A program made the position numbers and the translations under genes. From contig CAWHXD010000007.1 in NCBI GenBank assembly GCA_963833225.1, positions 224,001 to 288,000 of the forward strand: DNA of 64,000 nt, read 5' to 3'. A model generated the notes under the pieces. That model did not search any database. It was not told where the DNA came from and was given only the letters and a program-made list of their open reading frames with translations. This stretch comes from an uncultured Chloroflexia bacterium. Lineage in GTDB: Bacteria > Chloroflexota > Limnocylindria > Limnocylindrales > CSP1-4. Below are positions 2,448 through 62,052 of the stretch, in pieces. Position 1 is the stretch's first letter. Each line of letters opens with the position of its first letter.

Positions 2448-4387
2448 GCGTCGTCATCGGCACGGCCGGCCACATCGACCACGGCAAGACGACGCTCCTC
2501 CGCGCGCTGACCGGGATCGACGCCGACCGGCTGCCCGAGGAGCGCCGGCGCGGCATGACGATCGACGTCGGGTATGCGCACCTCGTCCTCGAGGACGGCT
2601 CGGTGCTGGATTTCGTGGACGTGCCCGGTCATGACCGGCTGGTGGGCAACATGCTCGTCGGGGCGGGCGAGATCGACGCTGCGCTGCTGGTGGTCGCGGC
2701 CGATGACGGGCCAAACGCCCAGACCCTGGAGCACCTCGAGCTGCTCGACGCGATCGGCGTTCGCGAGGCCGTGATCGCGGTGACGAAGACGGACCTGGTC
2801 GACGCCGACCGGGTTGCCGACGTGACCGGGGCCATCGCGTCGCTGGTCGGGCGCACGCGACTCGCGGGCGCGCCCGTGGTCGGCGTGAGCGGCGTCACCG
2901 GCGATGGTGTCGACGAGCTCCGCACGGCCCTTGCGGCGCTGCGCGACCGGGCGGCGGTTGGGCGCCCGCGGGCCGGTTCCGCCCGGCTGGCGATCGATCG
3001 CACGTTTGCCATCCGGGGTCGCGGGCTCGTGGTCACCGGGAGCCTGCGCGGCGGCCCCGTTTCCACCGGGTCGACGCTGCGCCTGGTTCCCGGTGGCATC
3101 GACCTGCGTGTGCGCGAGGTCCAGGTCCGGGGAGCCACGGTGCCGGCGTCCGACGGCGGGCGCACGGCGCTCCTCGTCGCCGGCGCGGAGGCCGAGCTGC
3201 TCGAGCGGGGGCGCATCCTCACGACCGATCCAGCCGTCGTCGCCACGTCGCGAGTCCTCGTCGCGCTACGGCCGCCGGCCGGGCTGGCGGCCATCCGGCG
3301 CGCCGCCGGCACCGCTGCCCGTGGGGGGTCCGCGGAGGCGCCCGCGGACCGTGACCGGCTGCGCCTCCACGTGGGCACGGCGCAGGCCGGCGCCCTCGTC
3401 GTGCGCGGGCCACGCGAGGCGATCGACCTGCCCGATGGGACGACCCTCGCCATCCTCCGGCTGGACACGGAGATCGCCGCCGCCGCCGGGGACTCGTTCG
3501 CGCTGCGCCGGCCGTCGCCGGGCGCGTCCGCGGGTGGTGGCGTGCTCCTTGACCCGTTGCCGCCCCGTGGCGTGTCGCGCCGACGGTTGACGCCGGCGCG
3601 GGCGGCCGCGCTTGCGTCCGCGGTGGCGGCGATGACGCGCGGCGATCCGGACGGAGCACCGGCCGTCGCGGATGCGCGCCTCGACCTCCACGGGGTGGTC
3701 CGCGAGCGTGACGGCTGGCTCGTGGCCCCGGACGTGCATGCCGCGCTGGCGGCCACCGCGCTGGACCTGGTCCGGGCCCACCACGCCGCGGAGCCGGAGT
3801 CTCCGGGCCTGGCGTTGCCGGTCATGCGCTCCGAGCTGGCGCTCGCCGCCCGCCGCCGCGCGACCCTGGGTCGCGCGGCGGCCGAGGACGTCGCCCGTGC
3901 TGAGGTCGACCGGCTGGTTGCCGATGGGACCCTGGCCCGGGACGGCGAGCGGCTGCGGGACCCGGAACGGGCCGCGGGGCTGCCGGCCGCGACGCTGGCG
4001 GCGATGGACCGACTGGAGACCGCGCTCTCGGTTGCCGCACCCCCGGCGCTCTCGGTGGCCGCACGCGACGCGGGCTGCCCGGCTGACGGCGTCCGGGCGC
4101 TCGAGACCGCGGGCCGGATCGTTCGCCTCGAGGACGATCTTGCCTGGGGGGCGGGGACCTACCGGGAGCTGGTGCGCAAGGCGCTGGCGATGGCCGCCGC
4201 GGCGCCGCTCGCCCCCGCCGCCTTCCGCGACGCCACGGGCACCAGCCGGCGCTACGTGCTGGTGGTCCTCGAGGACCTCGACCGGCGGGGTCTCCTTCGC
4301 CGCACCGATCTGGGCCATGTCCTGGGCCCCACGACGATCGCCCGGATGCAGGCCCGGGCGGCCGCCGCGCGGGAGCCCCGCGGGTGA
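2444..4387 (+). CDS. selB: Selenocysteine-specific translation elongation factor
   Basis: [35 protein letters not shown]-terminal winged helix [20 protein letters not shown]. Directly follows selA. Confidence 0.95.
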
Positions 4388-5048
4388 CGATCGCTGCCAT
4401 CGTGCTTGCCGGCGGGGCCTCGTCCCGCTTTGGCGGTGACAAGCTGGCCGCGGCGTACCTGGGGCGGCCGGTCCTCCATCACGCCCTGGCGGCGGTCGCG
4501 GCGGTTGCGGATCCGGTGGTCCTGGTGCTCGCCCCGGACGCCGCTGTCCCGGCGCTTCCGGCCGGGCTCGGGGCAGCGCTGCTCGTTGCGCGGGACGCCG
4601 TGGCGTTCCAGGGGCCGCTGGCCGGGCTGGCCGGGGGCATCGACGCGCTCCCGGCCGGCATCGACCGGGCAATCGTGGTTGCGGGCGACATGCCGACGCT
4701 CGTGCCCGGCGGTGCTCCATGCGCTGCTCGACGCCGTGGTCTCCGATGCCGGCGACCGGGGTCGCCTGCCTGGAGGCGGACCCGGAGTCCCCGCTGCCCA
4801 TGGCCGTACGGCCGTCGCTCGCGGGCCCAGCAGCCGCCCTCCTCCTGGCGGCCGAGCGCCGCAGCCTGCGGGCGCTCGTCGCGGCCGTCCCCTCGGTCGC
4901 GGTCCCGTCGGCCACCTGGCGGCGGCTGGATCCCGACGGGGTAACGCTCCGCGATGTCGACACGCCGGGGGATCTCGGGGGGTTGAGGCATGCTCTGGGC
5001 CTGGCGGCCGAGCGGGCTCGACCAGGGATGACTCACTCCTCGATTTGA
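4384..5048 (+). CDS. mobA: Molybdenum cofactor guanylyltransferase-like NTP transferase (frameshift near 4710)
   Basis: VLAGGASSRFGGDK, QGPLAGL and VVAGDMP in one frame; PLPMAVR...RDVDTPGDL continues in the frame ending at 5048. Confidence 0.75.
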
Positions 5049-5083
5049 GGCGAGCTCGCACGCGGGCCTTCTCTCGCCCCGCG

Positions 5084-6733
5084 TCAGCCGCCCAGCCCGG
5101 GCGCCTCGTGCACGGCCACGCCCTCGATGAACGTCGCGACGGCGTGGGTCTCGCCGATGGGTCCCGCGCCGGGTCGTCGAACAGGTCGCGATCGAGCATC
5201 GCGAGGTCGGCCAAGCGCCCGGCGCCAGCACGCCCGCCTCGTCGAGGTGGTTGGCGTAGGCGGAGCCGGCGGTCGCGGCGGTCAGGATGTCCACCAGCTC
5301 GAGGCGCTCCTCGGGCAGGAACGGCTCGGTGCCGCGCGCCTCGTCCGGGACCCGGTTGACCGCGACCTCCATCTGGACGAACGGGTCCGGCGTGGACACG
5401 CTCCAGTCCGAGCCCATGACGAGGGTGGCCCCGTGGCGACGAAGCGAGCGGAACGGGTACTGGCGCGCGGACACGACGGGCCCAGGATCGGCAGCGTCAG
5501 CTCCGTCCATCTGCGCTTCAGCACGGCCCAGTACGGCTGCGCGTTCGCCAGCGCCCCCAGCCTGCGGAACCGGGCCAGGTCGTCGGGATGGACGACCTGG
5601 AGGTGGGCCAGGTGGGGCCGGGTGTCGGACCAGCCGTTGGCTCGCCGGGCCGCCTCGACCGCATCGAGCGCCTGGCGCACGGCCCGGTCGCCCAGCGCAT
5701 GGAAATGCGGCTGGAACCCGAGGGCGTCGAGTCGCACGACGGCCTGCTTGAGCACCTCCGGGTCGATGAAGTCCTTGCCCCGGTTATCCGTCACGTGGCC
5801 GGCGACATCGAGGTACGGCTCGGTCATCGACGCCGTCTGGTTCTCCACGATCCCATCGACCATCAGCTTCACGCTGGTCGGTGAGAACCGGCCGACGGGT
5901 CCCCTGGCACGTCGCTCGACGAGTGACTCGATCTGCCCCAGGCCCTCGTCGCGCTCCCACCACAGGCCCCCAACGACCCGCGCGGTCAGCTCGCCGGATG
6001 CGCGCCAGCGACCGGTACGCGGCCTCCTCGACGGGGGTCACCCAGGCGTCCTGCCAGTTGGTGATGCCCAGCGAGTGGAGATACCGCTGGCTCTCGAGCG
6101 TGGCCCGGCGGAGGTCGTCGGCCGTGGGCGGTGGGATGAGGCGCTCCACGAGCGCCATCGCCCCCTCGTGGAGGGTGCCGGACGGGGTGCCGTCCGGATC
6201 GCGGGCGATCCGGCCATCGTCGGGGTCGGCCGTGCGCGGCCGAGATGCCGGCCCGGTCGAGCGCGGCCGGGTTGACCCACGCGTCGTGGCCGTCGCGGTT
6301 GGGCAGGAAGATCGGGCGGTCCGGGCAGACCCGGTCGAGGTCCTCCCGCCGCGGCAGGCCGCCCGGGAAGTCCGCCAGCGACCAGCCGCCACCCGTGATC
6401 CATTCGACATCCGGGTTGGCGCTGCGTGTAGGCCGCGACGGCGGCCAGGTAGTCGTCAAGTCCGTGGAGCCCGTGGAGCTCGCAGCGGATGCGCGCGAGG
6501 CCCGCCATCGGTGGGTGGACGTGGCTGTCGCCGAAGCCTGGCGTCACGGTGCGGCCGCGGAGCTCGATGACCCGGGTGCCCGGGCCCACCAGGGGCCGCA
6601 CGTCGCGGTCGCCACCCACGGCGGCGATGCGGCCCCCGCGGACGGCCATGGCCTCCGCCCAGGTCTTCGCGGCATCGGCGGTGAAGATCCGTCCCCCGGT
6701 CAGGACGAGGTCGGCGGCAGTCTCGCTCGGCAT
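5084..6733 (-). CDS. Amidohydrolase, YtcJ-like (several frameshifts)
   Basis: Consecutive frames give TVTPGFGDSHVH, NRDGHDAWVN, GTLHEGA, VKLMVDG, HFHALGDRAV, HLAHLQVVHP, MGSDWSVS and a C-terminus ATFIEGVAVHEAPGLGG*. Confidence 0.85.
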
Positions 6734-49169: not shown

Positions 49170-49804
49170 CGGGTGGCCTCGCGAAGCGCGCGTCGCGCCC
49201 AGCGCAGCCGGCGCACGCCCGCGGGCGCGACCCCGGCGAGGCCGCAGATCTCCAGCTCCAGCGCCCCGGCCCGGGCCTCCACCCGTGCGGCCGTCTCGTC
49301 GTCCCAGCCCCGACCGCGCGGTGGTCGATCACCCGCGGCCAGCACCGGCTCGCCCGGTCCCGACGGGTAGCGCCGGCGCCACGAGGCGAACCGGGCCTCC
49401 ATGGGCTCGATCCGCTGGCCAGCACGCTTGTCCGCGTAGGCGATGATCCGCGCCTCGAGCGGCGCCGCGGCCAGGCGCCGCGTGTCCGCCTCGTCTGCGT
49501 ATCGGCTCACGGGATGATCCCGCACGAGCGGCCCGAGCTTCGGGAAGCCCTGCGCCGCCAGCCACGCGGCGGACCCCTCGCCGTGGCGGGCGCCAGCCAC
49601 CCGCCCGGCCGGGATCTTGTCCACGTCGTGGAGCAGCGCCGCCGCCTCGACCGCGCGCACGTCGCACGGCGTCCCGTTGCCGGCGATCGCCCGGGCGAGC
49701 CAGCCGGCGACGTCCGCGACCGCGCACGCGTGCTGGAGCGACCAGTCGGGCGGGTCCAGGGACAACAGCAGGCGGGCGGCCTCGCGGCGTGTCGGAGTGG
49801 TCAT
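49166..49804 (-). CDS. HD-domain protein
   Basis: HACAVA, AALLHDVDK, HGEGSAAWL, RDH, IIAYADKR. Confidence 0.85.
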   Translation of the reverse strand: MTTPTRREAARLLLSLDPPDWSLQHACAVADVAGWLARAIAGNGTPCDVRAVEAAALLHDVDKIPAGRVAGARHGEGSAAWLAAQGFPKLGPLVRDHPVSRYADEADTRRLAAAPLEARIIAYADKRAGQRIEPMEARFASWRRRYPSGPGEPVLAAGDRPPRGRGWDDETAARVEARAGALELEICGLAGVAPAGVRRLRWARRALREATR

Positions 49805-52304
49805 CACCGGCATCGTAGCCGGTGAGGGCGACGCGGGCGGGGATCTCCGGGGTCGTCGCCGCGGAGGTCCGTGGAGTCCCCGTGGTCCGGACCCGCAGCC
49901 CGTCCGGGCGCAGCCCCACCTCCACCGTCCCGTCGAGGTCCGTGCGGAGGATGCGCGCCCCGATGTCGCGCAGCCGTGCAAGGGTCGACGCGGCCGGGTG
50001 TCCGTAGTCGTTGTCCGCCCCCACCGAGACCAGCGCGAGCGTCGGCCGCAGGGCCGCGAGGAGCGGCGCACTGGTGGCGGTGGCGCTGCCATGGTGTGCA
50101 ACCTTGAGGACGTCGATGGCCGGGAGGCCGCGGGCGAGCAGCGCCGGATCCACGTCGTCCTCGGCGTCGCCCGTGAGCAGGAATCGGCGGCCGTTGGCCT
50201 CGCCGAGGAGGACGATCGAGGTGTCGTTGATCCCCCGTCCCGTGGCGGCCGGTTCCGTGGGCACGCCGGGGTCCGGCCAGAGCACCGTCAGCGAGATCTC
50301 GTCGAGGCGCAGCCGGGCACCCGTGGCCAGCGTCGCCCTCGGCGGGCCGTGCTCGAGGGCCGCATCCCAGGCCGCCCACCCTGGTCCCGGTCCGTGCATG
50401 CCGGGTTCGAACACCTGCCCAACCCGGTACCGCTCCAGCACCCGCACCAGGCCCGCGACGTGATCCTCGTGGGGATGGGTCAGCACGATGATGTCGATCC
50501 GCCGGTCCCAGGGCGGGACGCGCTGGTCCAGGGCCACCAGGAGGCGGTCCGGGTCCGGCCCGCCATCGACCAGCATGCGCGCACCGCCCCGGGTCTCGAC
50601 CAGGATCGCGTCGCCCTGTCCCACGTCGAGCATCACGAGCCGCGTGGACCGCCCGGCGACATCGGCCATCGCGAGCGTCGACAGCGCCACGACAACCGCC
50701 GCGACGCCAAGCGCCAGCCGGCTGCCGCGCGAGGCGGGGATCGGCAGGCGACCAGCCGTCGCACCGGTCCCGGCCCGGGGCGACGGTGCCTGTTGACCGG
50801 GTCGTCGCTGCCCCGGCCGCCGGCGCCGACGGGCGCGCGAAGCCCGGAGCCGCCGGATCATGCCGGGCGCCCCCAGGACCAGCACCGCGGCCATGAGCGC
50901 CGCGGCCGGCGCCGCCTCCGGCGGGATCGGCACGGCCGCGAACGGCACCCCGGCTCCCAGCCGCACGAACGCGACGATGAGGTGGAGCAGCAGCCAGGCC
51001 GGCAGGCCGAGCATCGTTGCCAGCCCGTCCGGCAGCCCGGCCATGGACAGGGCGCCGCCCCCCATCGCGACCACGCCCGCGCCCATCGCCGCCGGCACGA
51101 GCGGGACGACCGCAAGGTTGACCACCGGCGCCACCAGCGACAGGCGCCCGAACGTGACCAGCACGTCCGGCAGCGTCGCCGCCTGGGCGGCCAGCGAGAT
51201 CCCGAGCCCCTCCGCCAGCCAGCCCGGGATCCGCCCGCCACCCAACCCCGCAAACCAGCGGCCCAGCGGCGTTCCCCAGGCCAGGAGCCCGGCGGTGGCG
51301 ACCACGGACAGCCGGAATCCGGCATCGCCGATCATCGTCGGGTCGACCACCAGCATCGAGAACGCGGCGAGGGCCAGGGCCGCCGGCGCGCGTGCCGACC
51401 GCCCCGACTCCCGGGCCAGCAGGACCACCGCCGCCATCACGGCCGCCCGGACCACCGACGGCGAGGCGCCCGCGGCGAGCACATACGCGCCGATCGTGCC
51501 CCCGACCACGATCGCGACCGCGCGGCGCGACCGACCGCGCATCAGGGCGCCCACGAGACCCGCCACGATGGCGATGTTCCAGCCCGAGATGGCGACCACG
51601 TGGCTGACGCCCGCCGTCGCGAAGTCGGCAGCCAGCGCCCGATCCACGCGCTCCCGGAGGCCCACCAGGATCCCCGCGGCCAGGCCCGCCTCCGGCTCCG
51701 GGAGCGAGACCTGCAGCGCGTCACCCGCCGCGTCCCGGGCCGGCTGGAGCGACAGGCCGCTCGCCCGTTCAACGATCCCGAGCGATCGTGCGTCCAGGCT
51801 GCCCGCGGCGCCCGTGCGGCGCAGGTACTCGCCGTAGCCGTCGTCCTCGGGCGGCGGTCGCAGACGGCCGTCGACCTCCACCGTGTCACCCGCGTGGACC
51901 GCCGGGAACGATGGCAGTGTTGCCGCAACACGCACCGGCCCCGGTTCCACCTGCAGCGCGAGGCGGGCGACCTGGCTCCCGTCCCGCGGTGAGCCCACGG
52001 AGTCCACGACCGCCGTCCAGGGCCCCGGCGTGGCCGGCAGCGGCGGGACGGGGGGAGCCGGCGGACCCAGCAGCAGCCGGAGCGCGACCAGGACCGCCCC
52101 GATGCCCGCCGGCGTCAAGGGAGCGACAGCCAGCGCCCGGGGAACCGCCAGCCCGATCGACACCGCCAGCAGCCCCACGACCAGGACGCCGGCCATCGGC
52201 CCGCCCGCGTACGCGACCGCTGCCGACACGGCGGCCCCGATCGCGAGCCACGCGCTGCGCGGGAGCGCCGGGAGCGCCGGGAGCGCTGGCGCGGCCGGCT
52301 TCAC
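49329..52304 (-). CDS. comEC: Competence protein ComEC/Rec2 (true 3' end probably near 49850)
   Basis: AGVSHVVAISGWN, SPSVVRAAVM, GFRLS, LDVGQGDA, LTHPHEDH, LLTGDAE, LKVAHHGS, NDYGHP, RTDLDG. Confidence 0.93.
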   Translation of the reverse strand: MKPAAPALPALPALPRSAWLAIGAAVSAAVAYAGGPMAGVLVVGLLAVSIGLAVPRALAVAPLTPAGIGAVLVALRLLLGPPAPPVPPLPATPGPWTAVVDSVGSPRDGSQVARLALQVEPGPVRVAATLPSFPAVHAGDTVEVDGRLRPPPEDDGYGEYLRRTGAAGSLDARSLGIVERASGLSLQPARDAAGDALQVSLPEPEAGLAAGILVGLRERVDRALAADFATAGVSHVVAISGWNIAIVAGLVGALMRGRSRRAVAIVVGGTIGAYVLAAGASPSVVRAAVMAAVVLLARESGRSARAPAALALAAFSMLVVDPTMIGDAGFRLSVVATAGLLAWGTPLGRWFAGLGGGRIPGWLAEGLGISLAAQAATLPDVLVTFGRLSLVAPVVNLAVVPLVPAAMGAGVVAMGGGALSMAGLPDGLATMLGLPAWLLLHLIVAFVRLGAGVPFAAVPIPPEAAPAAALMAAVLVLGAPGMIRRLRASRARRRRRPGQRRPGQQAPSPRAGTGATAGRLPIPASRGSRLALGVAAVVVALSTLAMADVAGRSTRLVMLDVGQGDAILVETRGGARMLVDGGPDPDRLLVALDQRVPPWDRRIDIIVLTHPHEDHVAGLVRVLERYRVGQVFEPGMHGPGPGWAAWDAALEHGPPRATLATGARLRLDEISLTVLWPDPGVPTEPAATGRGINDTSIVLLGEANGRRFLLTGDAEDDVDPALLARGLPAIDVLKVAHHGSATATSAPLLAALRPTLALVSVGADNDYGHPAASTLARLRDIGARILRTDLDGTVEVGLRPDGLRVRTTGTPRTSAATTPEIPARVALTGYDAGDDHSDTPRGRPPAVVPGPARLVAPARVRGRGRRRLARPGDRRQRDAVRRARGRGGGAAPRRGQDPGRAGGWRPPRRGVRRVAGGAGLPEARAARAGSSREPIRRRGGHAAPGRGAARGADHRLRGQACWPADRAHGGPVRLVAPALPVGTGRAGAGRG

Positions 52305-52999
52305 GGGCCGATCGTGACGAGCGGCCGGAGCTTGTCCATCGTCGCGGCGCTCACCACCTTGCGGGCGAGCAGGTCATCGACGCTCGTGAACGGTTGCTCC
52401 TCCCGCGCCGCGATGATCTTGGCCGCCGTCACGGGCCCGATCCCGGGCAGCGTGTCCAGCGCCTCCGCTGAAGCCCGGTTGAGATCGATCGGACCCGCGC
52501 CGCCGGCCACCCCGCCGCCCTGGTCCGTGCCAGGAGCCGCTGGATCCTCTCCGCGAACGGGCACGCGGATCTTCTGGCCATCCGTGATCGACGCCGCGAG
52601 ATTGAGCTGCCGGTCCACCAGGCCCGCGTCGACCGTCGCCGCGTACCCGCCTGCCGCGTCGATCGCGTCGGCGACGCGGGCGCCCGCCGGCAGCTGGTAC
52701 ACGCCGGGGCGAGTGACCGCCCCACCGACATCCACCACGAGCATGACCGCAGGTGCCGGACTTGCCGAGCGCGTCGCGCCGAGGTCTGCCGGCATCGCGC
52801 CCAACCCATTCGCGCCGTCCACGCTGATCACCGGCTCCTCCCCGCCAGCGACCAGGACGGCCCCGACGCCGACCAGGACCGCGAGAACGGCCGCGACGAC
52901 GGCGGGCCACGGCAGGCCACCAGGCGTCGCTTGGTGATCGGGCGGGGCTTCGGGCTCAGAGGCCTCGAGGACGCGCCACGGCGCGCTGCTTGGCTCCAC
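52301..52999 (-). CDS. comEA: Competence protein ComEA (TM, SLBB, HhH)
   Basis: VVDVGGAVTRPGVYQL, RVADAIDAAGG, IDLNRASAEALDTLPGIGP. Probable GTG start at 52999 after GGGAG. Confidence 0.92.
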   Translation of the reverse strand: MEPSSAPWRVLEASEPEAPPDHQATPGGLPWPAVVAAVLAVLVGVGAVLVAGGEEPVISVDGANGLGAMPADLGATRSASPAPAVMLVVDVGGAVTRPGVYQLPAGARVADAIDAAGGYAATVDAGLVDRQLNLAASITDGQKIRVPVRGEDPAAPGTDQGGGVAGGAGPIDLNRASAEALDTLPGIGPVTAAKIIAAREEQPFTSVDDLLARKVVSAATMDKLRPLVTIGP

Positions 53000-53082
53000 G
53001 GGTCGGGTCGCTCCCCGGCGGGATCCGGCGGCGGGCGTGGGTGTGGATGCGGTTGCGAGCACAGGTGGAGCGCCCGTGCGGG

Positions 53083-53095
53083 AGGGGGCACGTCC
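53083..53095 (+). repeat. attL core AGGGGGCACGTCC
   Basis: Exact match to 61917-61929; lies 15 nt upstream of the recombinase ATG. Confidence 0.88.
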
Positions 53096-53110
53096 ACATA
53101 TAATGCGGGT

Positions 53111-54355
53111 ATGAGTACCGCCGTCGCCTACCTTCGCCGGAGCCGGGTGGACACCCGCCGCCCTGGCACCGTCTCCCACGCCGAGCAGAAGCCGCCGTCA
53201 CCGCTCTGGCCGCCCAGCATGGCGATCACGATCTAGATGTTCTCGAGGACTGGGGGCGATCGGGCCGAGACGAGAAGCTCGCCAAGCGCGACGCGTTCGC
53301 CGATCTCCGGGCCCGCGTCAAGCGTGGCGACGTGACCGCCGTCTACGCCTACGACGTGTCGCGGCTCGGGCGCTCCGTCGTGACCCTCCACCAGCTGATG
53401 ACCGAGTGCAAGGCCGCCGGCATCCCCATCCGCTGCGCGTCGGGCTACTCCCCCGACATCAGCACCGCCGAGGGGCGGCTGGTGTTCGCCAACCTCGCCG
53501 CGATGTTCCAGTACCTCGCCGAGAGCGTGCAGGAGCGGGCCGCGCGGCGCGTCGAGGAGCGGCGCGAGAAGGGGGAGCTCATGGGCCCCGCGCCCTTCGG
53601 CTACCGGCTCGTGGACGGCAAGCATGTCCCCAACCCGGCCGAGGACCTCGCCACCGTGATCGAAACGTGGCGCGCGTCCGAGAGTGTCGCGGAGGCGTGC
53701 CGGCGCCTGAAGATGCCGGGGTGCGGACCCGGTCAGGCGTCCAGTGGCTACCATCGACGCTGTACGCGATCCTCGAGCACGAGGGGCTGCGCGTCCGCAC
53801 CCTGCAACGTGGACGGCCCGTGAAACGCACCTACCGGTTCTCGCGGCTCCTGCGATGCCCGCACGACGACTCCGCGCTCGTGGGCAACGGCAAGAACGGG
53901 CTCGTGCAGTACGAGTGTCGCGCGTCGCGCCTGACCGGCGATCACCCGTACCCACGCAGCATCTCCGAGCGGCTGATCCTGCCGTGGGCGGAGACTGAAG
54001 TGGACAGGCTGCGGCTGCCGGTGGACACGGTACAGACCGCGGTGGACAACGCCGAGCGCCGGGCCATCCTCTCCGGGCGCTTGGACCGCGCCAACGAGCT
54101 CTACATCGCCGGGAGCATCCCCAAGGACCGATACGAGCGGGAGGCCGCCGCGGTGGCCGCGGAGCTCGACGGCTTGGACGCCGAGGACGAGATGATCGCG
54201 GTCCCGCCGATCGGGCCGCACGATTGGGACACTTGGGCGCCCGCGGACCTCAACCGGACACTCCGCGCCCTCTGGTCCCGCGTCGAGCTCGGGGCCGATA
54301 TGCGGCCTGTCCGTGCGGAGTGGCGCAGCCGGCCCTGTGGAGCCCGGCGTCGTGA
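53111..54355 (+). CDS. Large serine recombinase/integrase (apparent frameshifts near 53190, 53710, 54325)
   Basis: AYLRRS (catalytic Ser), EDWGRSG, YDVSRLGRS, PAPFGY, zinc-ribbon-like LLRCPHD..YECR, coiled coil. TATAAT lies 6 nt before the ATG. Confidence 0.9.
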
Positions 54356-54675
54356 TCCTGCGACCGCTCGCCGTCGTGGGTTCGGCTGCCCGGTGCCCCG
54401 AGCCCACCTGTGGAGCCTGGATTGGCCGCGTCCGACGCGACCGGCGCGTCACCGAGCGTCACGGGCAGGAACCAACGCCCTATGTCGCCGAGACCTTGAT
54501 CCTCTCGACGCTCTGGCGGCCCGTCAACGGCGCTTGGCGCCTCGGCCGCCACCATGGGATGGACGAGCGGACGGTTACCTTCAGGCCGCTACCGATCGTG
54601 TGTCCCAAGTGCCACCACAAGGCCGCCGCACCGCCGCTGGTTTCGCGATTGCAGCCGAGGCCGCACACGGCGTAG
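54352..54675 (+). CDS. Hypothetical zinc-finger protein
   Basis: GTG overlaps the inferred integrase stop (GTGA); CPEPTC ... CPKC. Confidence 0.55.
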   Translation: MILRPLAVVGSAARCPEPTCGAWIGRVRRDRRVTERHGQEPTPYVAETLILSTLWRPVNGAWRLGRHHGMDERTVTFRPLPIVCPKCHHKAAAPPLVSRLQPRPHTA

Positions 54676-54772
54676 TATCTGGCTACCAACCCCAAGCGCG
54701 AGCCGACAGCGCGGCTCCACCGCTCTGCTCAACCGACAACGACGGGCAGGGTCAACGTGGAGTCGCGTTTCG

Positions 54773-54948
54773 ATGTTGTCGGAGAAGAACCCGCGCAAGG
54801 TTCGCGCCGGTCAGGCTGCGATGCGCAAGCGCTGGGGGCCGCAGCGAGTGCTGGCCTGGACCAGCTCGATCCCGTCACCCGTGAAGTGATCCTGTCCATC
54901 GTCGAGGCTCGGCGCAACGCCGCCGCTGCCGACGCCGGGCAGCAGTAA
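54773..54948 (+). CDS. Small basic hypothetical protein (one apparent frameshift)
   Basis: SD GGAG; MLSEKNPRKVRAGQAAMRKRWGPQRVL / LDQLDPVTREVILSIVEARRNAAAADAGQQ*. Confidence 0.5.
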
Positions 54949-55125
54949 GGGCCGCCGTCATGCGAGCAACCGGCAGCCCTCCGTCCAAGCCTACCCCCGA
55001 CGAGTGGGAGCGGGCTAATCACGCCGCCTACATGGTCGGCGTCATCCTCCGATACCGGCACCCGGCTGGGTCGTCGCGGAGCGGTTCCGCGAACTTGAGG
55101 CCGCGGGAGAGGCCCACAACGACGC

Positions 55126-56142
55126 ATGGTTCGGGACCGCGACGATGGTCCGCGGCTGGGACCAGACGTGAGCCTCACCGAGCCCGAGTGGGTCCGGGAT
55201 GGGCCTACGATCATCCCTGAGGCCGTCACACGGCCCCGGCTGGCCGTCACCGGCTCGCACCGCCTCTCGGTCCTGCGCTGGCAGGAGCTGATGACCTCGC
55301 CGCCCGAGCCGCCGCCGGTCCTCCGGGCCGGTATCCCGGAGGTGGGCGTCACTGTCCTTGCCGGGAGCCCGAAGGTGGGTAAGACACTCTGGAGCTCCCA
55401 GACGGCGCTGGAGATCCGCAAGCCCGTCCTGCTCGTCATCGAGGAGGGCAGCATGAGCGGGATCACCTACCGGCTGGCCAGACAGGCCGCCGCCCTCGAC
55501 ATTGCCGCGCCACCCATCGCGGTTCTGCACCGTCAGCGGATCCGCCTGGACAACCGGAGCAGCGTGGACGCCCTCCGGGCCATCGTGGCGGCCGAGCGGC
55601 CCGCGCTCGTGGTCCTGGACCCGCTCAACCGGCTCCACGGGGCCGATGAGAACCGGCCCACGCAGATGACCCCGGTCATGGACGCCATGGCCGGCATCGC
55701 CTACGACTACGGGGTCGCGGTCCTGGCGATCCACCACCTGTCCAAGCCCTCCGCCGAGCGGCGCGGGGACATCTGGGACCGCTACCGCGGCGCGTCCTCG
55801 ATCCGCTCCGGCACGGACGCCAACCTCGCGCTCGACGGGTCCGGAGACCGCGTGCGGCTGAGGGGTGAATTCCGGGATGCAGAGCCGCTGTCCGAGTACC
55901 TCGAGCTCGACCGCAACACGCTGCTATTCGGGCCGGGCGACGCCCCGGAGGCGCCGACCAAGGTGGACGCCCTCGCGCTGCGCCTGTTCGTCCAGGAGCG
56001 GACGCAGGTCACGGCGGCACAGGTCATGGCCGAGTACGCCGTGTCGAAGATGACCGCCCTTCGAGCCCTTCGAGCCCTCGGCTGTGACGAGTTCCCCGGT
56101 GTCCGCGGGACCCTGACGTTCACCCTCGGAGGTGGCTCGTGA
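55126..56142 (+). CDS. AAA_25 / RepA-type SF4 helicase with C-terminal HTH-like segment
   Basis: Walker A LAGSPKVGKT, Walker B LVVLDP, GADEN, IHHLSK, YRGASSI. Confidence 0.88.
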   Translation: MVRDRDDGPRLGPDVSLTEPEWVRDGPTIIPEAVTRPRLAVTGSHRLSVLRWQELMTSPPEPPPVLRAGIPEVGVTVLAGSPKVGKTLWSSQTALEIRKPVLLVIEEGSMSGITYRLARQAAALDIAAPPIAVLHRQRIRLDNRSSVDALRAIVAAERPALVVLDPLNRLHGADENRPTQMTPVMDAMAGIAYDYGVAVLAIHHLSKPSAERRGDIWDRYRGASSIRSGTDANLALDGSGDRVRLRGEFRDAEPLSEYLELDRNTLLFGPGDAPEAPTKVDALALRLFVQERTQVTAAQVMAEYAVSKMTALRALRALGCDEFPGVRGTLTFTLGGGS

Positions 56143-56146
56143 GCCT

Positions 56147-56300
56147 CCACCGTCCACCGTCTAACGACCGTATACCCACCGTCCATTGGACGCTGTCCAG
56201 GGACTGTCCCACCGTATCGTCACACGCCCCCTTTAGGGGGTGGGCTATGCGGTGGACGGTGGACGCCCGGAAGGGACAGTCCCAGAGGGACGACCGTATA
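56147..56300. repeat. Origin-like region with iterons and palindromes
   Basis: CCACCGT x4 plus an inverted copy, CGACCGTATA x2, inverted GGGACTGTCCC/GGGACAGTCCC, and central CCCCCTTTAGGGGG; directly after the helicase. Confidence 0.65.
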
Positions 56301-56421
56301 GCGCGCCCGGCGAAGCCATGGGGGCTTTGGCTAACTCCGCCACCCCCGCCACCCTCCACCCGCGCCTTAGGCGACTCGCTGTGAGCCTGTCCCTTTCCCG
56401 ACCCGTTTCCCAGAGGTTGAC

Positions 56422-56730
56422 ATGACCCCACCCATCCGCCCGCCCTCGCACCTGTCCAAGCCGTCCAAGGCGCTTTACATCGATGTCATGGGCAGCTACC
56501 TGCTCGAGCCCCACCACGTGGCCCTGCTCGTCAAGGCGCTGGAGGCCCGCGACCGTGCCGACCAGGCACGCGCCGAGATTGGCCGCGGACCACTCATGGT
56601 CACCTCCCGGCTCGGCGAACAGAAGCCCCACCCGCTGCTCACCGTCGAGCGGGACGCCCGCGCCCAGTTCGGCACGCTGATGAAGCAACTCGGCCTGGAC
56701 ATCGACGGCCCGCCGTCCAACCGGAGATAG
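56422..56730 (+). CDS. Phage terminase small subunit, P27 family
   Basis: PPSHLSK N-terminus; GPLMVTSRLGEQKPHPLL; FGTLMKQLGL C-terminus, typical of P27 TerS. Confidence 0.82.
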   Translation: MTPPIRPPSHLSKPSKALYIDVMGSYLLEPHHVALLVKALEARDRADQARAEIGRGPLMVTSRLGEQKPHPLLTVERDARAQFGTLMKQLGLDIDGPPSNRR

Positions 56731-56732
56731 CC

Positions 56733-56942
56733 ATGCCCTCCCCCAAGCGCCGCCCCAAGCTGCACCGCCCGCCCCCTGCCGATCTGTCCGGCCTCGCCTA
56801 CTGGGAACTCGTGGAACTCGCCAAGCGTGGCGAGATCACCTGGTCCGACATCTCGGCCGAGACCCACCGTCAGGTCCTCGCGTCCAACGGCGGCATCGAC
56901 CCCTACGCCCACCTCCGCATCGACAGGGAGCCCCTCGCATGA
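56733..56942 (+). CDS. Hypothetical protein
   Basis: SD GGAG; tightly packed between terS and the next ORF (ATGA overlap). Confidence 0.6.
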   Translation: MPSPKRRPKLHRPPPADLSGLAYWELVELAKRGEITWSDISAETHRQVLASNGGIDPYAHLRIDREPLA

Positions 56943-57180
56943 ACGCCACCGCCGCCGAAATCGCCGAGGCAATCGCCAACCTGGCCGCCGCCGCCCACCA
57001 GCGGCTCGACCGCGGCGACCTGTTCGCCCTGCTGGACGATCCGGCCGCGGAGAAGCGGGTTGACGTGGACGGAGACACCTACCGGCTCACGGCCGGCGAC
57101 GTGACCCTGTGGAAGGCCCTACGGCCGCCGTCGCCGCCGCGGTCGAGATCCTGGCCGCCAAGCGCGACAAGCTGAACTAG
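56939..57180 (+). CDS. Hypothetical protein (probable frameshift near 57120)
   Basis: SD GGGAG; MNATAAEIAEAIANLAAAAHQRLDRGDLFALLDD... Confidence 0.55.
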
Positions 57181-57184
57181 CCCG

Positions 57185-57214
57185 TTGCCGGAACGTGCGC
57201 CCTAGCGGTAACAT
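57185..57214 (+). promoter_or_regulatory. Sigma70-like promoter upstream of the capsid gene
   Basis: TTGCCG (57185-57190), 18-nt spacer, TAACAT (57209-57214). Confidence 0.55.
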
Positions 57215-57337
57215 GTTCTCGCCGCCCAGAGGGTGGCAGTCAACGGGGCAGCGCGCCCGGTGGGCCCAGAGGGCCCGTCAGGAGCAGCGCCCGCCGCCAG
57301 AGGACCGCGCCAGAGGCGAGGCCCACGAGGCAGCGGA

Positions 57338-58709
57338 ATGGCCGACCCGGCCGCCTATCTGCTGGCGATCTCGGCGCCCCTTGGAGACACCGTGACCCCG
57401 ACCAACTTCGACTACACCGCCGAGCAGCTTCGTGCGCTCGATCATGCCATCGAGGGCGCGCGTACCGTCGTCCGGCTCGATGAGATGCGAGACGACGGCA
57501 AGGAGTTGACCTTCAACCAGTCGACCGACCGCGCCGAAGCATCCGGGCGTGGAACGACGCGGCCGACATCGTGCCCAGCCTCGCCCGGTGGGAGAGCATC
57601 ACTACCGACAGCGAGGCCTTCACCCGCTCCCTGGCCACCCTCCGCATGCACCTGCAAATGGGCAAGGGCGCAGCCCTCAGGGCCGAGATGCGTGCCAACG
57701 GCGCGGCCTACCTATTCGATGGAACGCTGGACCGCCCTGGCAGCGGCAATCCCGAAGCCATCACGATGAACGACCAGATCCGCGAGCTCTTGCAGTCCGG
57801 CGAGCGGCAGCACGACTTCGAGTACCTCGAGACCGACGCCATCCGCGAAATCCGCCGTCCTTCGCCGCCGGCGAGCAGAGGGCCATTGCCAACTTCTCGG
57901 ACGCCTCATCGCTGCATGTCAACGACTTCCGGCGACAGGTGGCGATGTACGCCCGCACGGCCAGTCCGTGGCTCGGACTGGCAACCGTCGTGACCTCCGA
58001 CGCGGGCCGGCCTCTGATCGTGCCCAAGCTCACGGGTGACGGCACCGTCTACACCCCGGGTGAGGGGACTGCCGTGTCCGAGAGCTCGGCCGTGCTGGAC
58101 TCCGTCACCGTGACCCCGACCGGGTTCAAGGCGTTGACGTACATCAGCCGTGAGAGCTGGGACGATGAGGAGGTGGACCTCGGCCGCCTGCTTGCCGCCT
58201 CGCACGCGCGGGCCATCGGCCTGGCGTTCGGCTCGACCGCGACCACGGCCGTCCTGGCTGGGATCAGAACGGCGGCACCGCGTCCGGCCTCGGTGGCGAC
58301 GGTACGGCCGTCGTGCCGTTCCTGGATACGAGGACTTGATCGACCTCCAGATGGGTCGAGCAGCCCCGTACCGCGAGGGCGGTGCCTACGTGATGGCCAA
58401 CGGCGCCATCACCAAGGTCAAGAAGTTCAAGGACGGACAGGGGTCCTACCTCTGGCCGACCGGCGCCCTGCCCATCGGTGGCATGGCGTATGAGGACCCG
58501 AACCTGGCGCTCCCGCCTCGGCCACCAAGAGTGTGTGCTTCGGGGATTGGGGCGCCGCCCTGATCATCAAGGCCACGCCGATCCGGGTCGAGGTGTCGCG
58601 GGACTTCCTGTTCAACACCGACCAGGTGGCCATCAAGACCGTCCAGCGCATCGCCCTCGCGGTGCAGGACCCGGCCGCTGCCGCGTACCTCGTGAGCGCC
58701 GATACGTAG
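57338..58709 (+). CDS. HK97-fold major capsid protein with N-terminal extension (several frameshifts)
   Basis: Joined frames give LATVVTSDAGRPLIVPK, EGTAVSES, TYISRESWDDEEVDL, YEDLIDL, AYVMAN, KFKDGQGSYLW, CFGDW, VEVSRDFLFNTDQVAIK. Confidence 0.85.
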
Positions 58710-58945
58710 ATCCCCCGGACCGCCAGTACCCCTCCGGCCTGTCCACCTCAATCGCCCGCACGGGTTCCGCGTCGTCGCTCCACCTCGAAGGCGCGGCGCT
58801 CTGGCAGCAGCTTCGGGTCCGGCCGGAGCGTGCGGGCTAGGCCGTCGCTGACCGGCGGCGCAACCCCCCGTGGGGAACGCAGGACCTTCGAACGAGGTAA
58901 AGTCACGTACGGTCATGACAACGATGACGAACGACCAACCCGACA

Positions 58946-59770
58946 ATGCGTGATCGGGACCGCGACAAAGTCGCGCTCCGGGGCTCCATCGTTGACTTCG
59001 GCGATCCGCCGGTTATCGAAGTGGCCCTGTCGACCGAGATCCGTCGTTTACCGCACATGAGCCTGGTCCGCATCGTGGACGCATGGCACGAGCTGTATCA
59101 GGATCGCTTCCCGGAGGTTCAGGAACAGGCTCGCTACGCGCCCCCGCCGCTAAACGCGGAGCGCGGGCAGAGGATTTGCATGATGTCCCAACTTCCCACG
59201 CCAAGGCTGTGGTTCCTCAATCAGGCTCGAACCGACCTCATTCAGCTCCAGAACGACTGGTTTGGGCGCAACTGGCGCAAGGTTGAGGGCGCCGAGGAGT
59301 ATCCACGATACGGCGTCCTCCGCGAGGCGTTCGCCCACGACCTTGGGCTACTGCGGGACTTCACCGAGCGCAATGCGCTGGGATCTCTTGTGCCCACTAC
59401 CTGTGAGATCACGTACATCAACCACATCGAACTGGCACCAGACTTGGGTGTTGAACAGGTCCTCGGCGTGCTATCGCGGGATGGTGGAGGCTTCCTCCCC
59501 AAGATGGAGGCAGGTAGCCTGTCGGCTCGCTTCGCAATTACGGACGGCGAACACGCGCGAGGTACGCTTGCCGTCAACGCCTCGACCGCCACCCGGGCTG
59601 GCGACAATGCCAGCATTCTCGCGTTGCAGGTGACGGCTCGAGGGAACGCCACCACAGGCGATGTTGCTGGCGTGCTGCGATTTTTGGATCTCGGTCACGA
59701 ATGGGTTGTGCGTGCATTTGCGGAGTTGACGACCGAGCAGATGCACCAGCGCTGGGGGAGGACGCAATGA
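58946..59770 (+). CDS. TIGR04255-like protein
   Basis: FGDPPVIEVAL, PRLWFLN, LIQLQNDWF..NWR, YPRY, CEITYINHI, FAELTTEQMHQRW. Recognised from memory of the family pattern. Confidence 0.75.
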   Translation: MRDRDRDKVALRGSIVDFGDPPVIEVALSTEIRRLPHMSLVRIVDAWHELYQDRFPEVQEQARYAPPPLNAERGQRICMMSQLPTPRLWFLNQARTDLIQLQNDWFGRNWRKVEGAEEYPRYGVLREAFAHDLGLLRDFTERNALGSLVPTTCEITYINHIELAPDLGVEQVLGVLSRDGGGFLPKMEAGSLSARFAITDGEHARGTLAVNASTATRAGDNASILALQVTARGNATTGDVAGVLRFLDLGHEWVVRAFAELTTEQMHQRWGRTQ

Positions 59771-60284
59771 CGGCTCTGCTGCCAGAGACACGGTACCTAT
59801 CGGACCACCTGGTGAATGGCCAGTTCGAGGACTTTGCCGCCACGGGGGCCGCAACGACTGGGAGTCCGGCGTCTTTCACCTATCGCCTGGGGACAGCAGA
59901 TCTTGCTCCTTACATCGCACGCCAACGAGCTGACGAGTTCGTGTCGCGCGCGATCGAGCGACTGGAGTTGATGCGCCCGAACTGGGACGGAGACAACGGG
60001 CGGGCGATCTCGCCTCGAGCCCTTGCATACGCGGCCGGGCTGGTTCCCGATCTTGCTGCCCAGGGGGTGATGATCCCAAGCCTCGTTCCGGTGTCGGATG
60101 GCGGGATCTCGATTGAGTGGCACCGCGGGGGCCGCCAAAGCTGACCCTCTACGTCCCTCCGCGGTTCCCGGACGAGGACGCCGTCGCCTACTACCTCGAC
60201 GAGCGCACTGGCAACGAGTGGGAGGAAGCGCTGCCAGCCAACGAGTCGCGCGTTGAGGCGCACTTGGCGCAGTTCCTGGAGTAG
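59767..60284 (+). CDS. Hypothetical protein (frameshift near 60140)
   Basis: ATGA-coupled to the upstream gene. LELMRPNWDGDNGRAISP...VPVSDGGISIEWH continues as LTLYVPP...AHLAQFLE*. Confidence 0.7.
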
Positions 60285-60343
60285 CCCGATTTGGAAACGT
60301 CGACGCTGACTGGCAACGCTTCCGTGAGCCAGGGGACCGAGGT

Positions 60344-60754
60344 TTGACTGAGGCGCGGGTAGAGGCTGATGCCATCCTTCTGCGCAAGATCACTCCCGAT
60401 TGGGTGGTGCCCGACAACGAAGGTGGGTTTCGTGTGTCGAGTGCGGCGTACAGAGGCAATCGGACTGCCTCGAATTTGAGGGCGTTCTCGGTGTTCGTCG
60501 AGGCCCGGCTGACAGCGTCCGGGGCTGACGCCTCCGTACTCTTGGACGCTGATCAAGGCCTCTGGAGCGTCGTGAGCATCGACATCGGGACCGTGCGCGA
60601 AGTCGACCTTGAAGCGTGGTACCGCCCCGAAGGGGTGGACCCCATCCTAATTGAAGCCCACGCAGAGGTTGAAGGATCCATCAGCACGAAGAAGGCGTCG
60701 ACACTGGCTCGCAAGTCGCGACAGGTGATTTGGCGAGGGTCGTCGTCAGCGTGA
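60344..60754 (+). CDS. Hypothetical protein, possible ADP-ribosyltransferase-fold toxin
   Basis: Pattern LLRKI...SSAAY...FSVF...HAEV, resembling the R / S / H strands of small ART-like toxins. Confidence 0.6.
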   Translation: MTEARVEADAILLRKITPDWVVPDNEGGFRVSSAAYRGNRTASNLRAFSVFVEARLTASGADASVLLDADQGLWSVVSIDIGTVREVDLEAWYRPEGVDPILIEAHAEVEGSISTKKASTLARKSRQVIWRGSSSA

Positions 60755-60806
60755 GTGCTGGGTGCCATATCCCGCCCGCTTGCCAGTTCGCGATTGTCCT
60801 CCGGGC

Positions 60807-61055
60807 CTACGAGGGCGTTCCACCCTCGCGGATCAGCCGAAGGCACCGAGCCAGTTCCCGGATGACCCCCAGCTCGGTCGGGGCAATGGCCGTCCACTCC
60901 TGCGACCGAGCGCCCGCCTGAGCCCACTCTCGCGGATCGAAAGCGTACTGCTCCCACACATTCCGCCCCTCGTCGTAGGACGGCCGGCCCACGAACCAGC
61001 CCGGAGGCTTCGCTTCGTAGAGCTCGCTCCAGGCGGCCTCTAGGTCGGTGGGCAT
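60807..61055 (-). CDS. Hypothetical protein
   Basis: TACCAT 7 nt before the ATG; Trp-rich 82-aa ORF. Confidence 0.65.
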   Translation of the reverse strand: MPTDLEAAWSELYEAKPPGWFVGRPSYDEGRNVWEQYAFDPREWAQAGARSQEWTAIAPTELGVIRELARCLRLIREGGTPS

Positions 61056-61100
61056 GGGGCCGATGGTACGGCTATGGCGGCCTTGCGGATCAGTGGTCTG

Positions 61101-61772
61101 CTACTCGCCTGTCCTTTGGGCCATCGAGACCGCGAGCGCGAGGACCGCGACGACTGCACCTGCCACCAGTATCCACAGTCCATACCCCACCGAGGCGCGG
61201 GTGCTCTCACTGCTGGCATCTATGAGGCGGTTCGACATATTGACTAGGTCGTACGCGGACAGCGCGACGAGCACCAGGGCGCCTAGCAGTGCCAGCGGAC
61301 GGCGACGGCGGAAGCCGGTCGCCAACGGAAACGCAAGAACGGCAACCAGCACCGCAAGCCAAAGAGTCAGGACGCCGTCGCCGTCCGTGCCGGCGATAGA
61401 GAAACTGCCAAGACCGCTCTGCGCGCTGGCCCACGGCAGGACACTGCCGACTGCAGCCACAACCGCAGCACCAGCAGCCACATAGCCAAGTTGCGTCGAG
61501 GCTTGGCGAGCGAGCGTGGCGGCTACCGGATCGACCGGGACGGTCCGTATGCGGCCCCAGCTCAGGATCGCGTCCCCACCCAGCCTGTCGAGGACGGCTT
61601 CGCCAATGTTGTCGAGCGGCACCCGAATTTCGTCGCCACTCTTTGTGGACCGGATGATGACCACGCCCGGCTCGAGACGCAGCACCTCGCCACGAGTGCC
61701 GGTCGCTGGTGTCGGAACCTTGTACTTGATGCGAACACGTTGACCCGTCCGTAACTCCGGAAGGCCTGTCAT
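61101..61772 (-). CDS. Membrane protein with N-terminal SH3/KOW-like beta domain
   Basis: SD AAGGAG; GQRVRIKY..RGEVL; four C-terminal hydrophobic helices (LPW, GYGLWILV). Confidence 0.7.
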   Translation of the reverse strand: MTGLPELRTGQRVRIKYKVPTPATGTRGEVLRLEPGVVIIRSTKSGDEIRVPLDNIGEAVLDRLGGDAILSWGRIRTVPVDPVAATLARQASTQLGYVAAGAAVVAAVGSVLPWASAQSGLGSFSIAGTDGDGVLTLWLAVLVAVLAFPLATGFRRRRPLALLGALVLVALSAYDLVNMSNRLIDASSESTRASVGYGLWILVAGAVVAVLALAVSMAQRTGE

Positions 61773-61916
61773 CCCATGCTCCTTTGACACCTCGGTCTTC
61801 GCGACCGGCTCGACGGGTGGTTGCCTGTGAGGCCAGCCTACGCGGATCGCGGCGATGCCGAAGCGTTCGGGCGGGGTCTCCTTCCATGCGCCCGATGCGT
61901 GACCCGCAAAGTTGAC

Positions 61917-61929
61917 AGGGGGCACGTCC
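61917..61929 (+). repeat. attR core AGGGGGCACGTCC
   Basis: Exact match to 53083-53095. Its first base completes TTGACA (61912-61917). Confidence 0.88.
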
Positions 61930-62052
61930 TTCCGCACGGGTGTCCGGTTCAAACCCTATCCGCCGCCACTTATCTGCCACTTACGCGGAGGGTGGTACTG
62001 GGCGCTCCCGCGGGAGTCAGGCTAGGATCGGCCCCCGACACCGAGGAGCCGA

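Follow-up and report, generated by a model that had tools for sequence, protein, structure and literature searches.

A recurrent gene trio with links to the defence candidate PDC-M32, carried with a frameshift on a satellite-like island of a Chloroflexia genome

The PDC systems have been described as 145 untested candidates, selected for their location inside loci of BREX, DISARM or type I restriction–modification (RM) systems. One of these, PDC-M32, consists of two genes encoding M32A (about 375 residues) and M32B (about 123–131 residues), and PADLOC hits to it have been reported in Sinorhizobium prophages (PMC12429752). Another point of reference is CmdTAC, described as comprising an ADP-ribosyltransferase (ART) toxin, an antitoxin and a chaperone and as being triggered by a capsid protein; the defining part of toxin–antitoxin–chaperone (TAC) systems is described as a SecB-like chaperone, which binds the chaperone-addiction (ChAD) element of the antitoxin. 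PADLOC holds a model for CmdTAC under an earlier name. Within the ART superfamily, KptA is described as a phage-encoded RNA-repair enzyme that uses phosphate as the nucleophile, and the KptA and RES domains as sharing phosphate-directed NAD+ chemistry (PMC9503650). Here, we analysed a window of 64,000 nucleotides (nt) from an uncultured Chloroflexia bacterium (GenBank assembly GCA_963833225.1, contig CAWHXD010000007.1, positions 224,001 to 288,000 of the forward strand) and, within it, a trio of genes at positions 58946–60754. An original prediction, made from the letters of the DNA alone, had proposed that this trio is a chaperone–antitoxin–toxin defence system in reverse order to CmdTAC. We find that the trio recurs in the same order on mobile elements, that its second gene matches the C-terminal part of M32A and that its third gene weakly matches M32B.

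The trio and its recurrence on mobile elements

The trio consists of three open reading frames (ORFs) in the same orientation, all on the plus strand (Table 1). Genes 1 and 2 overlap in an ATGA at 59767–59770, and the GC content by codon position is consistent with the called frames of genes 1–3. Overall GC is 62.8% in the trio compared with 71.8% in the window, across which 311 sliding windows of the trio's length were all higher. The original prediction had described three co-oriented genes of low GC, the first two coupled by ATGA, and had taken them as cargo of a satellite. Both descriptions were borne out, the latter by the lowest GC of the window and by the integrase, terminase and capsid genes that precede the trio.

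Table 1. Features of the trio and of the adjoining island, in window coordinates
Feature	Position	Strand	Description
Island	53104–58709		Small, satellite-like; adjoins comEA/comEC
Serine integrase			Split over two frames; Resolvase domain; phrog_95 profile
AAA_25/primase-helicase-like gene	55126–56142
Small terminase subunit	56422–56730
Major capsid gene fragments	up to 58709		Pfam Phage_capsid; three ORFs in different frames
Region upstream of gene 1	58710–58945	+	236 nt, non-coding; follows the last capsid fragment and precedes gene 1; promoter presumed here
Gene 1	58946–59770	+	274 residues; TIGR04255 family protein
Gene 2, 5′ part	59767–60144	+	125 codons from the ATG at 59767, then a premature stop
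Frameshift site in gene 2 (approximate)	60127–60141	+	G5 run, then CCGCCAAAG; both frames overlap here
Gene 2, 3′ part	60138–60284	+	Different frame; 48 codons plus stop
Gene 3	60344–60754	+	136 residues; TTG start; basic alpha/beta protein, distant relative of PDC-M32B

The same three genes, in the same order, were present in all three contexts seen (3/3), a small sample made up of the window and two outside loci from unrelated bacteria. The first outside locus (L001), in a Chloroflexia metagenome-assembled genome, was reached via gene 3 and was the only locus returned by a scan with a four-sequence gene 3 profile. Its gene 1 (3601–4506) is 53% and its gene 3 (5001–5417) 47% identical to the window counterparts, and its genes 1 and 2 share the ATGA overlap of the window. 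A Recombinase-domain gene lies upstream of this trio on the opposite strand. Between the two, a 191-residue ORF on the minus strand (3022–3597) belongs to no family.

The second outside locus (L002) lies on a Mycobacterium paragordonae plasmid and was reached independently via gene 1. Here, a TIGR04255 gene is followed by a 180-residue gene (14-nt overlap) and then by a 142-residue gene (4-nt overlap); the trio stands directly after a MobF relaxase gene, and the plasmid also encodes a type IV coupling protein. The 180-residue protein shares 26% identity with L001 gene 2 (E = 4e-6) and the 142-residue protein matches the gene 3 family profile (hhalign probability 97.8%, E = 8e-13). The latter retains R14, S49, R85, P95 and H106 despite its distance from the window's gene 3, which is 3.9 substitutions per site in the tree of the family. 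All three contexts are thus mobile elements, namely a satellite-like island, a Recombinase-domain neighbourhood and a relaxase plasmid. When gene 3, L001 gene 2 and two low-GC members of the gene 3 family (P0051 and P0071) were compared by tblastn with phages and/or plasmids, no match was returned, and gene 1 returned a single Mycobacterium plasmid. An absence of co-occurrence elsewhere had been named beforehand as an outcome that would speak against the predicted system; both L001 and L002 carry the trio. We conclude that the trio is real and more than a chance arrangement.

Gene 1 belongs to TIGR04255, an NCBIfam subfamily model of unknown function. With membership taken to require at least the 30 bits of the curated NCBIfam cutoff along the whole profile, gene 1 (41.4 bits, E = 1.5e-10, profile positions 4–252 of 252) and its homologues in L001 (57.7 bits) and L002 (51.2 bits) are all full members, in agreement with the family named in the original prediction. 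The nearest ESM Atlas clusters of gene 1 also all bear the name TIGR04255 (0.96–0.97). Searches of gene 1 against Pfam, PADLOC, PHROG and PDB sequences gave no match beyond chance-level PDB hits, and the literature searched held no mention of TIGR04255. Pfam likewise returned no family for any of the three genes or for their homologues. What is new is the recurrent association of the orphan TIGR04255 family with genes 2 and 3.

The AlphaFold model of gene 1, which was built from only two sequences, is poor (predicted local distance difference test (pLDDT) score of 57.3). In this model a strand–helix–several strands–long helix pattern occurs twice. Comparison of the N-terminal with the C-terminal half by hhalign detected no sequence similarity (probability 0.08%), so it is the pattern of secondary structure that suggests an internal duplication. 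The fold matches of the model, all at E > 0.001, were to TATA-binding proteins (TBPs), a RepD-type replication initiator, PafA/Dop and helix-grip proteins, and a duplicated TBP-like saddle is a lead to its possible fold.

Genes 2 and 3 in comparison with PDC-M32

Gene 2 matched the PADLOC model for PDC-M32A in all three trios. The window gene covered profile positions 258–320 of 375 (E = 2.4e-6), the intact L001 gene positions 254–356 (E = 3.8e-12), and the homologue on the L002 plasmid matched at E = 3.7e-3. Since the L001 protein matches positions 254–356, the 3′ piece of the window gene falls in the same domain. The first 45–58 residues of gene 2 are poorly conserved and gapped in the alignment. 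On these sequence comparisons, gene 2 is predicted to have a full length of roughly 160–175 residues, with a folded domain homologous to the C-terminal domain of PDC-M32A. The protein has no Pfam or NCBIfam family, PDB sequence and profile searches returned chance-level matches only, and a word-indexed search for close relatives found none but itself. A search for fused forms with the intact gene 2 gave none among 2658 longer-protein candidates at E ≤ 0.001, which is weak evidence.

Gene 3 of the window matched two PADLOC models of PDC-M32B, at E = 1.5e-3 and 0.011. Among 101 members of the gene 3 family, 22 matched PDC-M32B at E ≤ 1e-3, the best at 2.4e-6; the L001 and L002 homologues gave no match at E ≤ 0.01. 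Because these matches are weak, we regard the gene 3 family as a sister group of M32B and not as M32B proper. At E ≤ 1, the trio proteins had no PADLOC matches beyond the PDC-M32 models.

The trio resembles PDC-M32 in that gene 2 matches A and gene 3, weakly, B, and in that the two genes are adjacent, stand in the same order and lie on mobile elements. It differs in that gene 2 covers the C-terminal domain of M32A only, the segments given above being the sole matches and no trio protein matching M32A in full, and in that a separate, coupled TIGR04255 gene stands where M32A has about 250 N-terminal positions. It is the matches of genes 2 and 3 to A and B that link the trio to a defence candidate. 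The proposal of a defence system thus received indirect support through PDC-M32, whereas no CmdTAC-type system was among the PADLOC matches at E ≤ 1.

The gene 3 family was defined by a search of 1.84 billion representatives at E ≤ 0.001 with a four-sequence profile, which returned 103 representative clusters at E ≤ 1e-3, almost all of 95–171 residues. Four of the matches were giant repeat proteins of 2517–6859 residues (P0006, P0010, P0020 and P0059). Their E-values, down to 5e-21, are sums over repeats of at most 14.3 bits each, and these proteins were rejected as spurious because they did not match a 101-sequence profile at E ≤ 10. About 99 clusters remained once the spurious ones were dropped; the family is therefore rare, and its clusters are tiny and carry only the name 'hypothetical protein' in the cluster look-up. 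No Pfam family matched gene 3, with one of the 101 members giving a chance-level match to DUF6758, and PDB sequence and profile searches returned chance-level matches only, with no Tpt1 among them. A 116-residue relative from another source (P0004) is 98% identical to gene 3 residues ~78–121 (window 60560–60930), and its 3′ end runs on in the frame of the window ORF 60730–60921, an observation that points to an indel in this near-identical relative where gene 3 ends.

The R..S-V..H-A-E-V spacing quoted for gene 3 in the original prediction is present, and in the 101-sequence alignment its first, second and third anchors are nearly invariant (R14 95/95, S49 100/101 and H106 100/100). Further conserved positions are F36 (97/99), R30 (90/98), R85 (91/100), P95 (93/101) and G111 (93/100). 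The AlphaFold2 model of gene 3 is confident (pLDDT 94.4, predicted template modelling (TM) score 0.88); in it, the three invariant residues (Arg, Ser and His) lie on strands 1, 4 and 7. ART catalytic triads are of the H-Y-E or the R-S-E type, and in R-S-E enzymes the Arg, Ser and Glu follow in this order on successive strands. In the model, the order of the gene 3 triad resembles R-S-E with His, not Glu, at the third position.

When the model was compared with the PDB by Foldseek, the seven rows with a probability of at least 0.25 were all ART-superfamily proteins (7/7), whereas all other rows had probabilities of at most 0.11. These seven were AvrPphF ORF2 and six Tpt1/KptA entries (probability 0.28–0.63, TM-score 0.38–0.44). 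ART-superfamily enzymes (Tpt1/KptA, AvrPphF ORF2/HopF and RES), with which gene 3 shares its Arg- and His-rich invariant residues, were thus its only structural neighbours above noise. Among the viral models of BFVD, a phage 'putative RNA 2′-phosphotransferase' also resembles gene 3 (probability 0.38). Gene 3 is smaller than Tpt1/KptA (136 residues compared with about 180 in two lobes), and an ART-like fold, whose core is a split beta-sheet that binds NAD+, is possible on this model. The best structural neighbour of gene 3 in BFVD is an unnamed 149-residue viral protein, A0A9E7QQI2 (probability 0.89, 16% identity), which, from its modelled fold, may be a phage-borne member of the gene 3 family.

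A frameshift in gene 2 and the surrounding island

The NWDG and VPVSDGGISIEW motifs that the original prediction had read in gene 2 are both there; the gene is not an intact ORF, and its frameshift had been missed. The L001 homologue is uninterrupted (4503–4982, 159 residues) and reads '...VSDGGVTIEWHQGMRQLVLYVPPR...' without a break across the equivalent position. In the window, the gene reads '...VSDGGISIEWHRGGRQS' up to a premature stop at 60142–60144 and continues in another frame, within 60138–60284, with 'KLTLYVPPRFPDED...FLE' before its final stop. The 5′ piece is 44% identical to residues 1–116 and the 3′ piece 52% identical to residues 117–158 of the L001 homologue, and the third-position GC of the 3′ piece is 0.88 (measured on ORF 60117–60284). 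Since the intact homologue spans both frames, the window copy of gene 2 is broken. The shift lies near the G5 run and CCGCCAAAG, where the exact base cannot be fixed, and it takes about one third of the conserved domain out of the main ORF. The trio is therefore three genes of which one is broken, with a true extent of 58946–60754 that includes the 60138–60284 piece. Programmed frameshifting was considered and is unlikely, because there is no canonical slippery site at the shift and both homologues are single ORFs.

The adjoining island shows the same kind of damage. Positions 113–262 of the phrog_95 integrase profile fall in one ORF and positions 361–562 in an ORF of another frame, and the Phage_capsid profile is split across three ORFs (positions 7–113, 148–192 and 225–278). 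Host genes of the same window are long and uninterrupted, and, by a crude tiling with ORFs of high third-position GC, 84% of positions 1–53000 is covered compared with 27% of 53000–61000. To the left of the island, comEC and comEA lie on the minus strand (49329–53197). No convincing attachment-site repeats were found flanking the island, which has the look of a phage satellite, or of what is left of a prophage, in decay; the trio can fairly be called the cargo at its end. Because the integrase and capsid genes are equally damaged, we take the gene 2 frameshift as real decay, although a local error in sequencing the G run is possible.

These data bear on whether the locus is dead in this genome and now without function, irrespective of the role of the family in other genomes. 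We consider that it probably is: gene 2 is frameshifted within an island whose integrase lies in two frames and whose capsid gene lies in three, while host genes of the same window are intact, and P0004, almost identical to part of gene 3, changes frame at its 3′ end. Both gene 1 and gene 3 are nevertheless intact with all family-invariant residues in place, and a single-base sequencing error at the G5 run is possible. Such a loss would be confined to this copy, and it can be reconciled with the reading of the family that we favour below.

The region upstream of gene 1 (58710–58945) contains no ORF with a coding signal. A sigma-70 consensus scan of this region matched no site, so that an operon promoter there is a presumption; a terminator consensus scan likewise gave no match, and an Rfam scan of 58500–61200 gave no credible RNA. 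Just 3′ of the trio, two genes are convergent with it on the minus strand. The first (60807–61055) encodes 82 residues with no family, and the second (61101–61952) a 283-residue protein that matched an SH3 domain and a family of membrane proteins only at chance level. The GC of 60755–61952 is 66%, below that of the host, and these two genes may belong to the island cargo.

Possible functions of the trio

Our favoured reading, held with somewhat less than even confidence, is that the trio is a split three-component variant of PDC-M32, a conflict system probably of the abortive-infection type. The three genes would form one operon that is passed as a whole from one mobile element to another. The effector enzyme would be gene 3, acting on NAD+ and/or on the phosphate groups of nucleic acids, a chemistry suggested by its invariant Arg, Ser and His and by its weak resemblance to Tpt1/KptA-type ARTs. 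Gene 2 would be an adaptor or inhibitor that holds gene 3, and gene 1 a sensing or regulatory subunit, translationally coupled to gene 2 and working through it. We infer these roles, the binding between the proteins and a part in defence from the family links, the recurrence and the mobile contexts described above. Gene 1 might then be the equivalent of the M32A N-terminus, an equivalence that the profile does not support.

Several observations weigh against this reading. Gene 2 is broken in the window and gene 3 is intact, which would be unexpected if gene 2 alone restrains a toxic gene 3. In a comparison made with the PDC-M32A profile only, its approximately 250 N-terminal positions were not matched by gene 1 (E ≤ 1) or by the homologues of gene 1 (E ≤ 0.01), so the split-gene idea is unproven. 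No PDC-M32 function has been tested, and the co-occurrence rests on just two outside loci. As to gene 3, its matches to PDC-M32B are weak, with 79 of the 101 family members lacking one at E ≤ 1e-3. The original prediction had called this protein ART-like; that the above-noise Foldseek rows are all ARTs agrees with it, whereas the significance of the resemblance does not. The gene 3 model had no match at E ≤ 0.001 in the PDB or BFVD, its TM-scores of 0.38–0.44 fall under the usual 0.5, the family showed no profile link to E. coli KptA (hhalign probability 0.17%), and the Glu residues of the H-A-E-V-E segment are variable (neither E108 nor E110 reaches 60% among the 101 sequences).

An alternative that we regard as unlikely is a type II toxin–antitoxin (TA), or addiction, pair, in which gene 2 is the antitoxin, gene 3 the toxin and gene 1 an accessory regulator, and which would stabilise its element and not act in phage defence. 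Strict addiction should not tolerate the arrangement in the window, where a frameshifted gene 2 stands beside a full gene 3 ORF with its invariant residues, unless the locus is silent; this argues against a simple toxin–antitoxin dependence in this copy. Nor does such a pair account for gene 1, which is an equally conserved partner (3/3 loci) and is translationally coupled to gene 2. Its appeal lies in the small size of genes that adjoin or overlap, the position of the putative antitoxin upstream of the toxin, the occurrence on a plasmid and on integrated elements, the tail and folded domain of gene 2, and the basic, enzyme-like gene 3.

Going beyond our favoured reading of a PDC-M32 variant, the trio could be a new three-component abortive-infection system in its own right. 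Gene 3 would then found a minimal, hitherto unrecognised ART branch with an Arg-Ser-His centre that transfers ADP-ribose to nucleic-acid phosphates or bases, TIGR04255, as a duplicated TBP-like saddle, would sense a phage or satellite molecule, and PDC-M32 would be the fused two-gene form. We hold this proposal to be decidedly unlikely.

It is quite improbable, in our estimation, that the trio is a counter-defence or establishment module, with gene 3 as a Tpt1/KptA-like enzyme whose end healing or modification would mend or mask nucleic acids that host defences attack, and genes 1 and 2 as its specificity partners. The best structural neighbours of gene 3 include RNA 2′-phosphotransferases, one of them from a phage, which would accord with the description of KptA as a phage-encoded RNA-repair ART (PMC9503650), and the L002 trio lies directly 3′ of a relaxase gene on a conjugative-type plasmid. 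Yet the resemblance in fold does not reach significance, comparison of the family profile with KptA gives no link, and the sole family link of the trio is to PDC-M32, a defence candidate whose own role is untested.

The scheme of the original prediction, in which gene 1 acts as a chaperone of the SecB type or senses capsid, gene 2 is an antitoxin that depends on the chaperone and gene 3 is a nucleic-acid-targeting ART toxin, has the described precedent of the capsid-triggered CmdTAC and shares with it three genes on a mobile element, a partner with a flexible, poorly conserved N-terminal tail and a possible ART-like effector with ART-superfamily fold matches above noise, but it is extremely improbable because the SecB-like chaperone that defines such systems was not seen: gene 1, at 274 residues, matched nothing beyond TIGR04255 in Pfam, NCBIfam or PADLOC at E ≤ 1, SecB included; the best 50 fold matches of its low-confidence model (pLDDT 57) were TBP-like, RepD-like and helix-grip proteins with no SecB among them; the present data point to no ChAD element; the gene order differs; PADLOC matches at E ≤ 1 were confined to PDC-M32, with gene 3 matching PDC-M32B and no CmdT-type ART; and gene 3 is much smaller than the CmdTAC effector and lacks a conserved catalytic Glu.

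Together, these results suggest that the trio may be a new variant of a known but untested candidate system, present in this genome as a probably dead copy. That the window copy is probably no longer functional follows from the frameshift in gene 2 within an island of frameshifted integrase and capsid genes, and for the annotation of this genome the trio should be treated as a copy within a decaying island, with gene 2 as a pseudogene. If the intact forms elsewhere are functional, they would provide the first functional context for the orphan TIGR04255 family. PDC-M32 would then have a split, three-gene form carried on satellites, integrative elements and plasmids across phyla, with a small effector whose confidently predicted fold has no significant match among solved structures.

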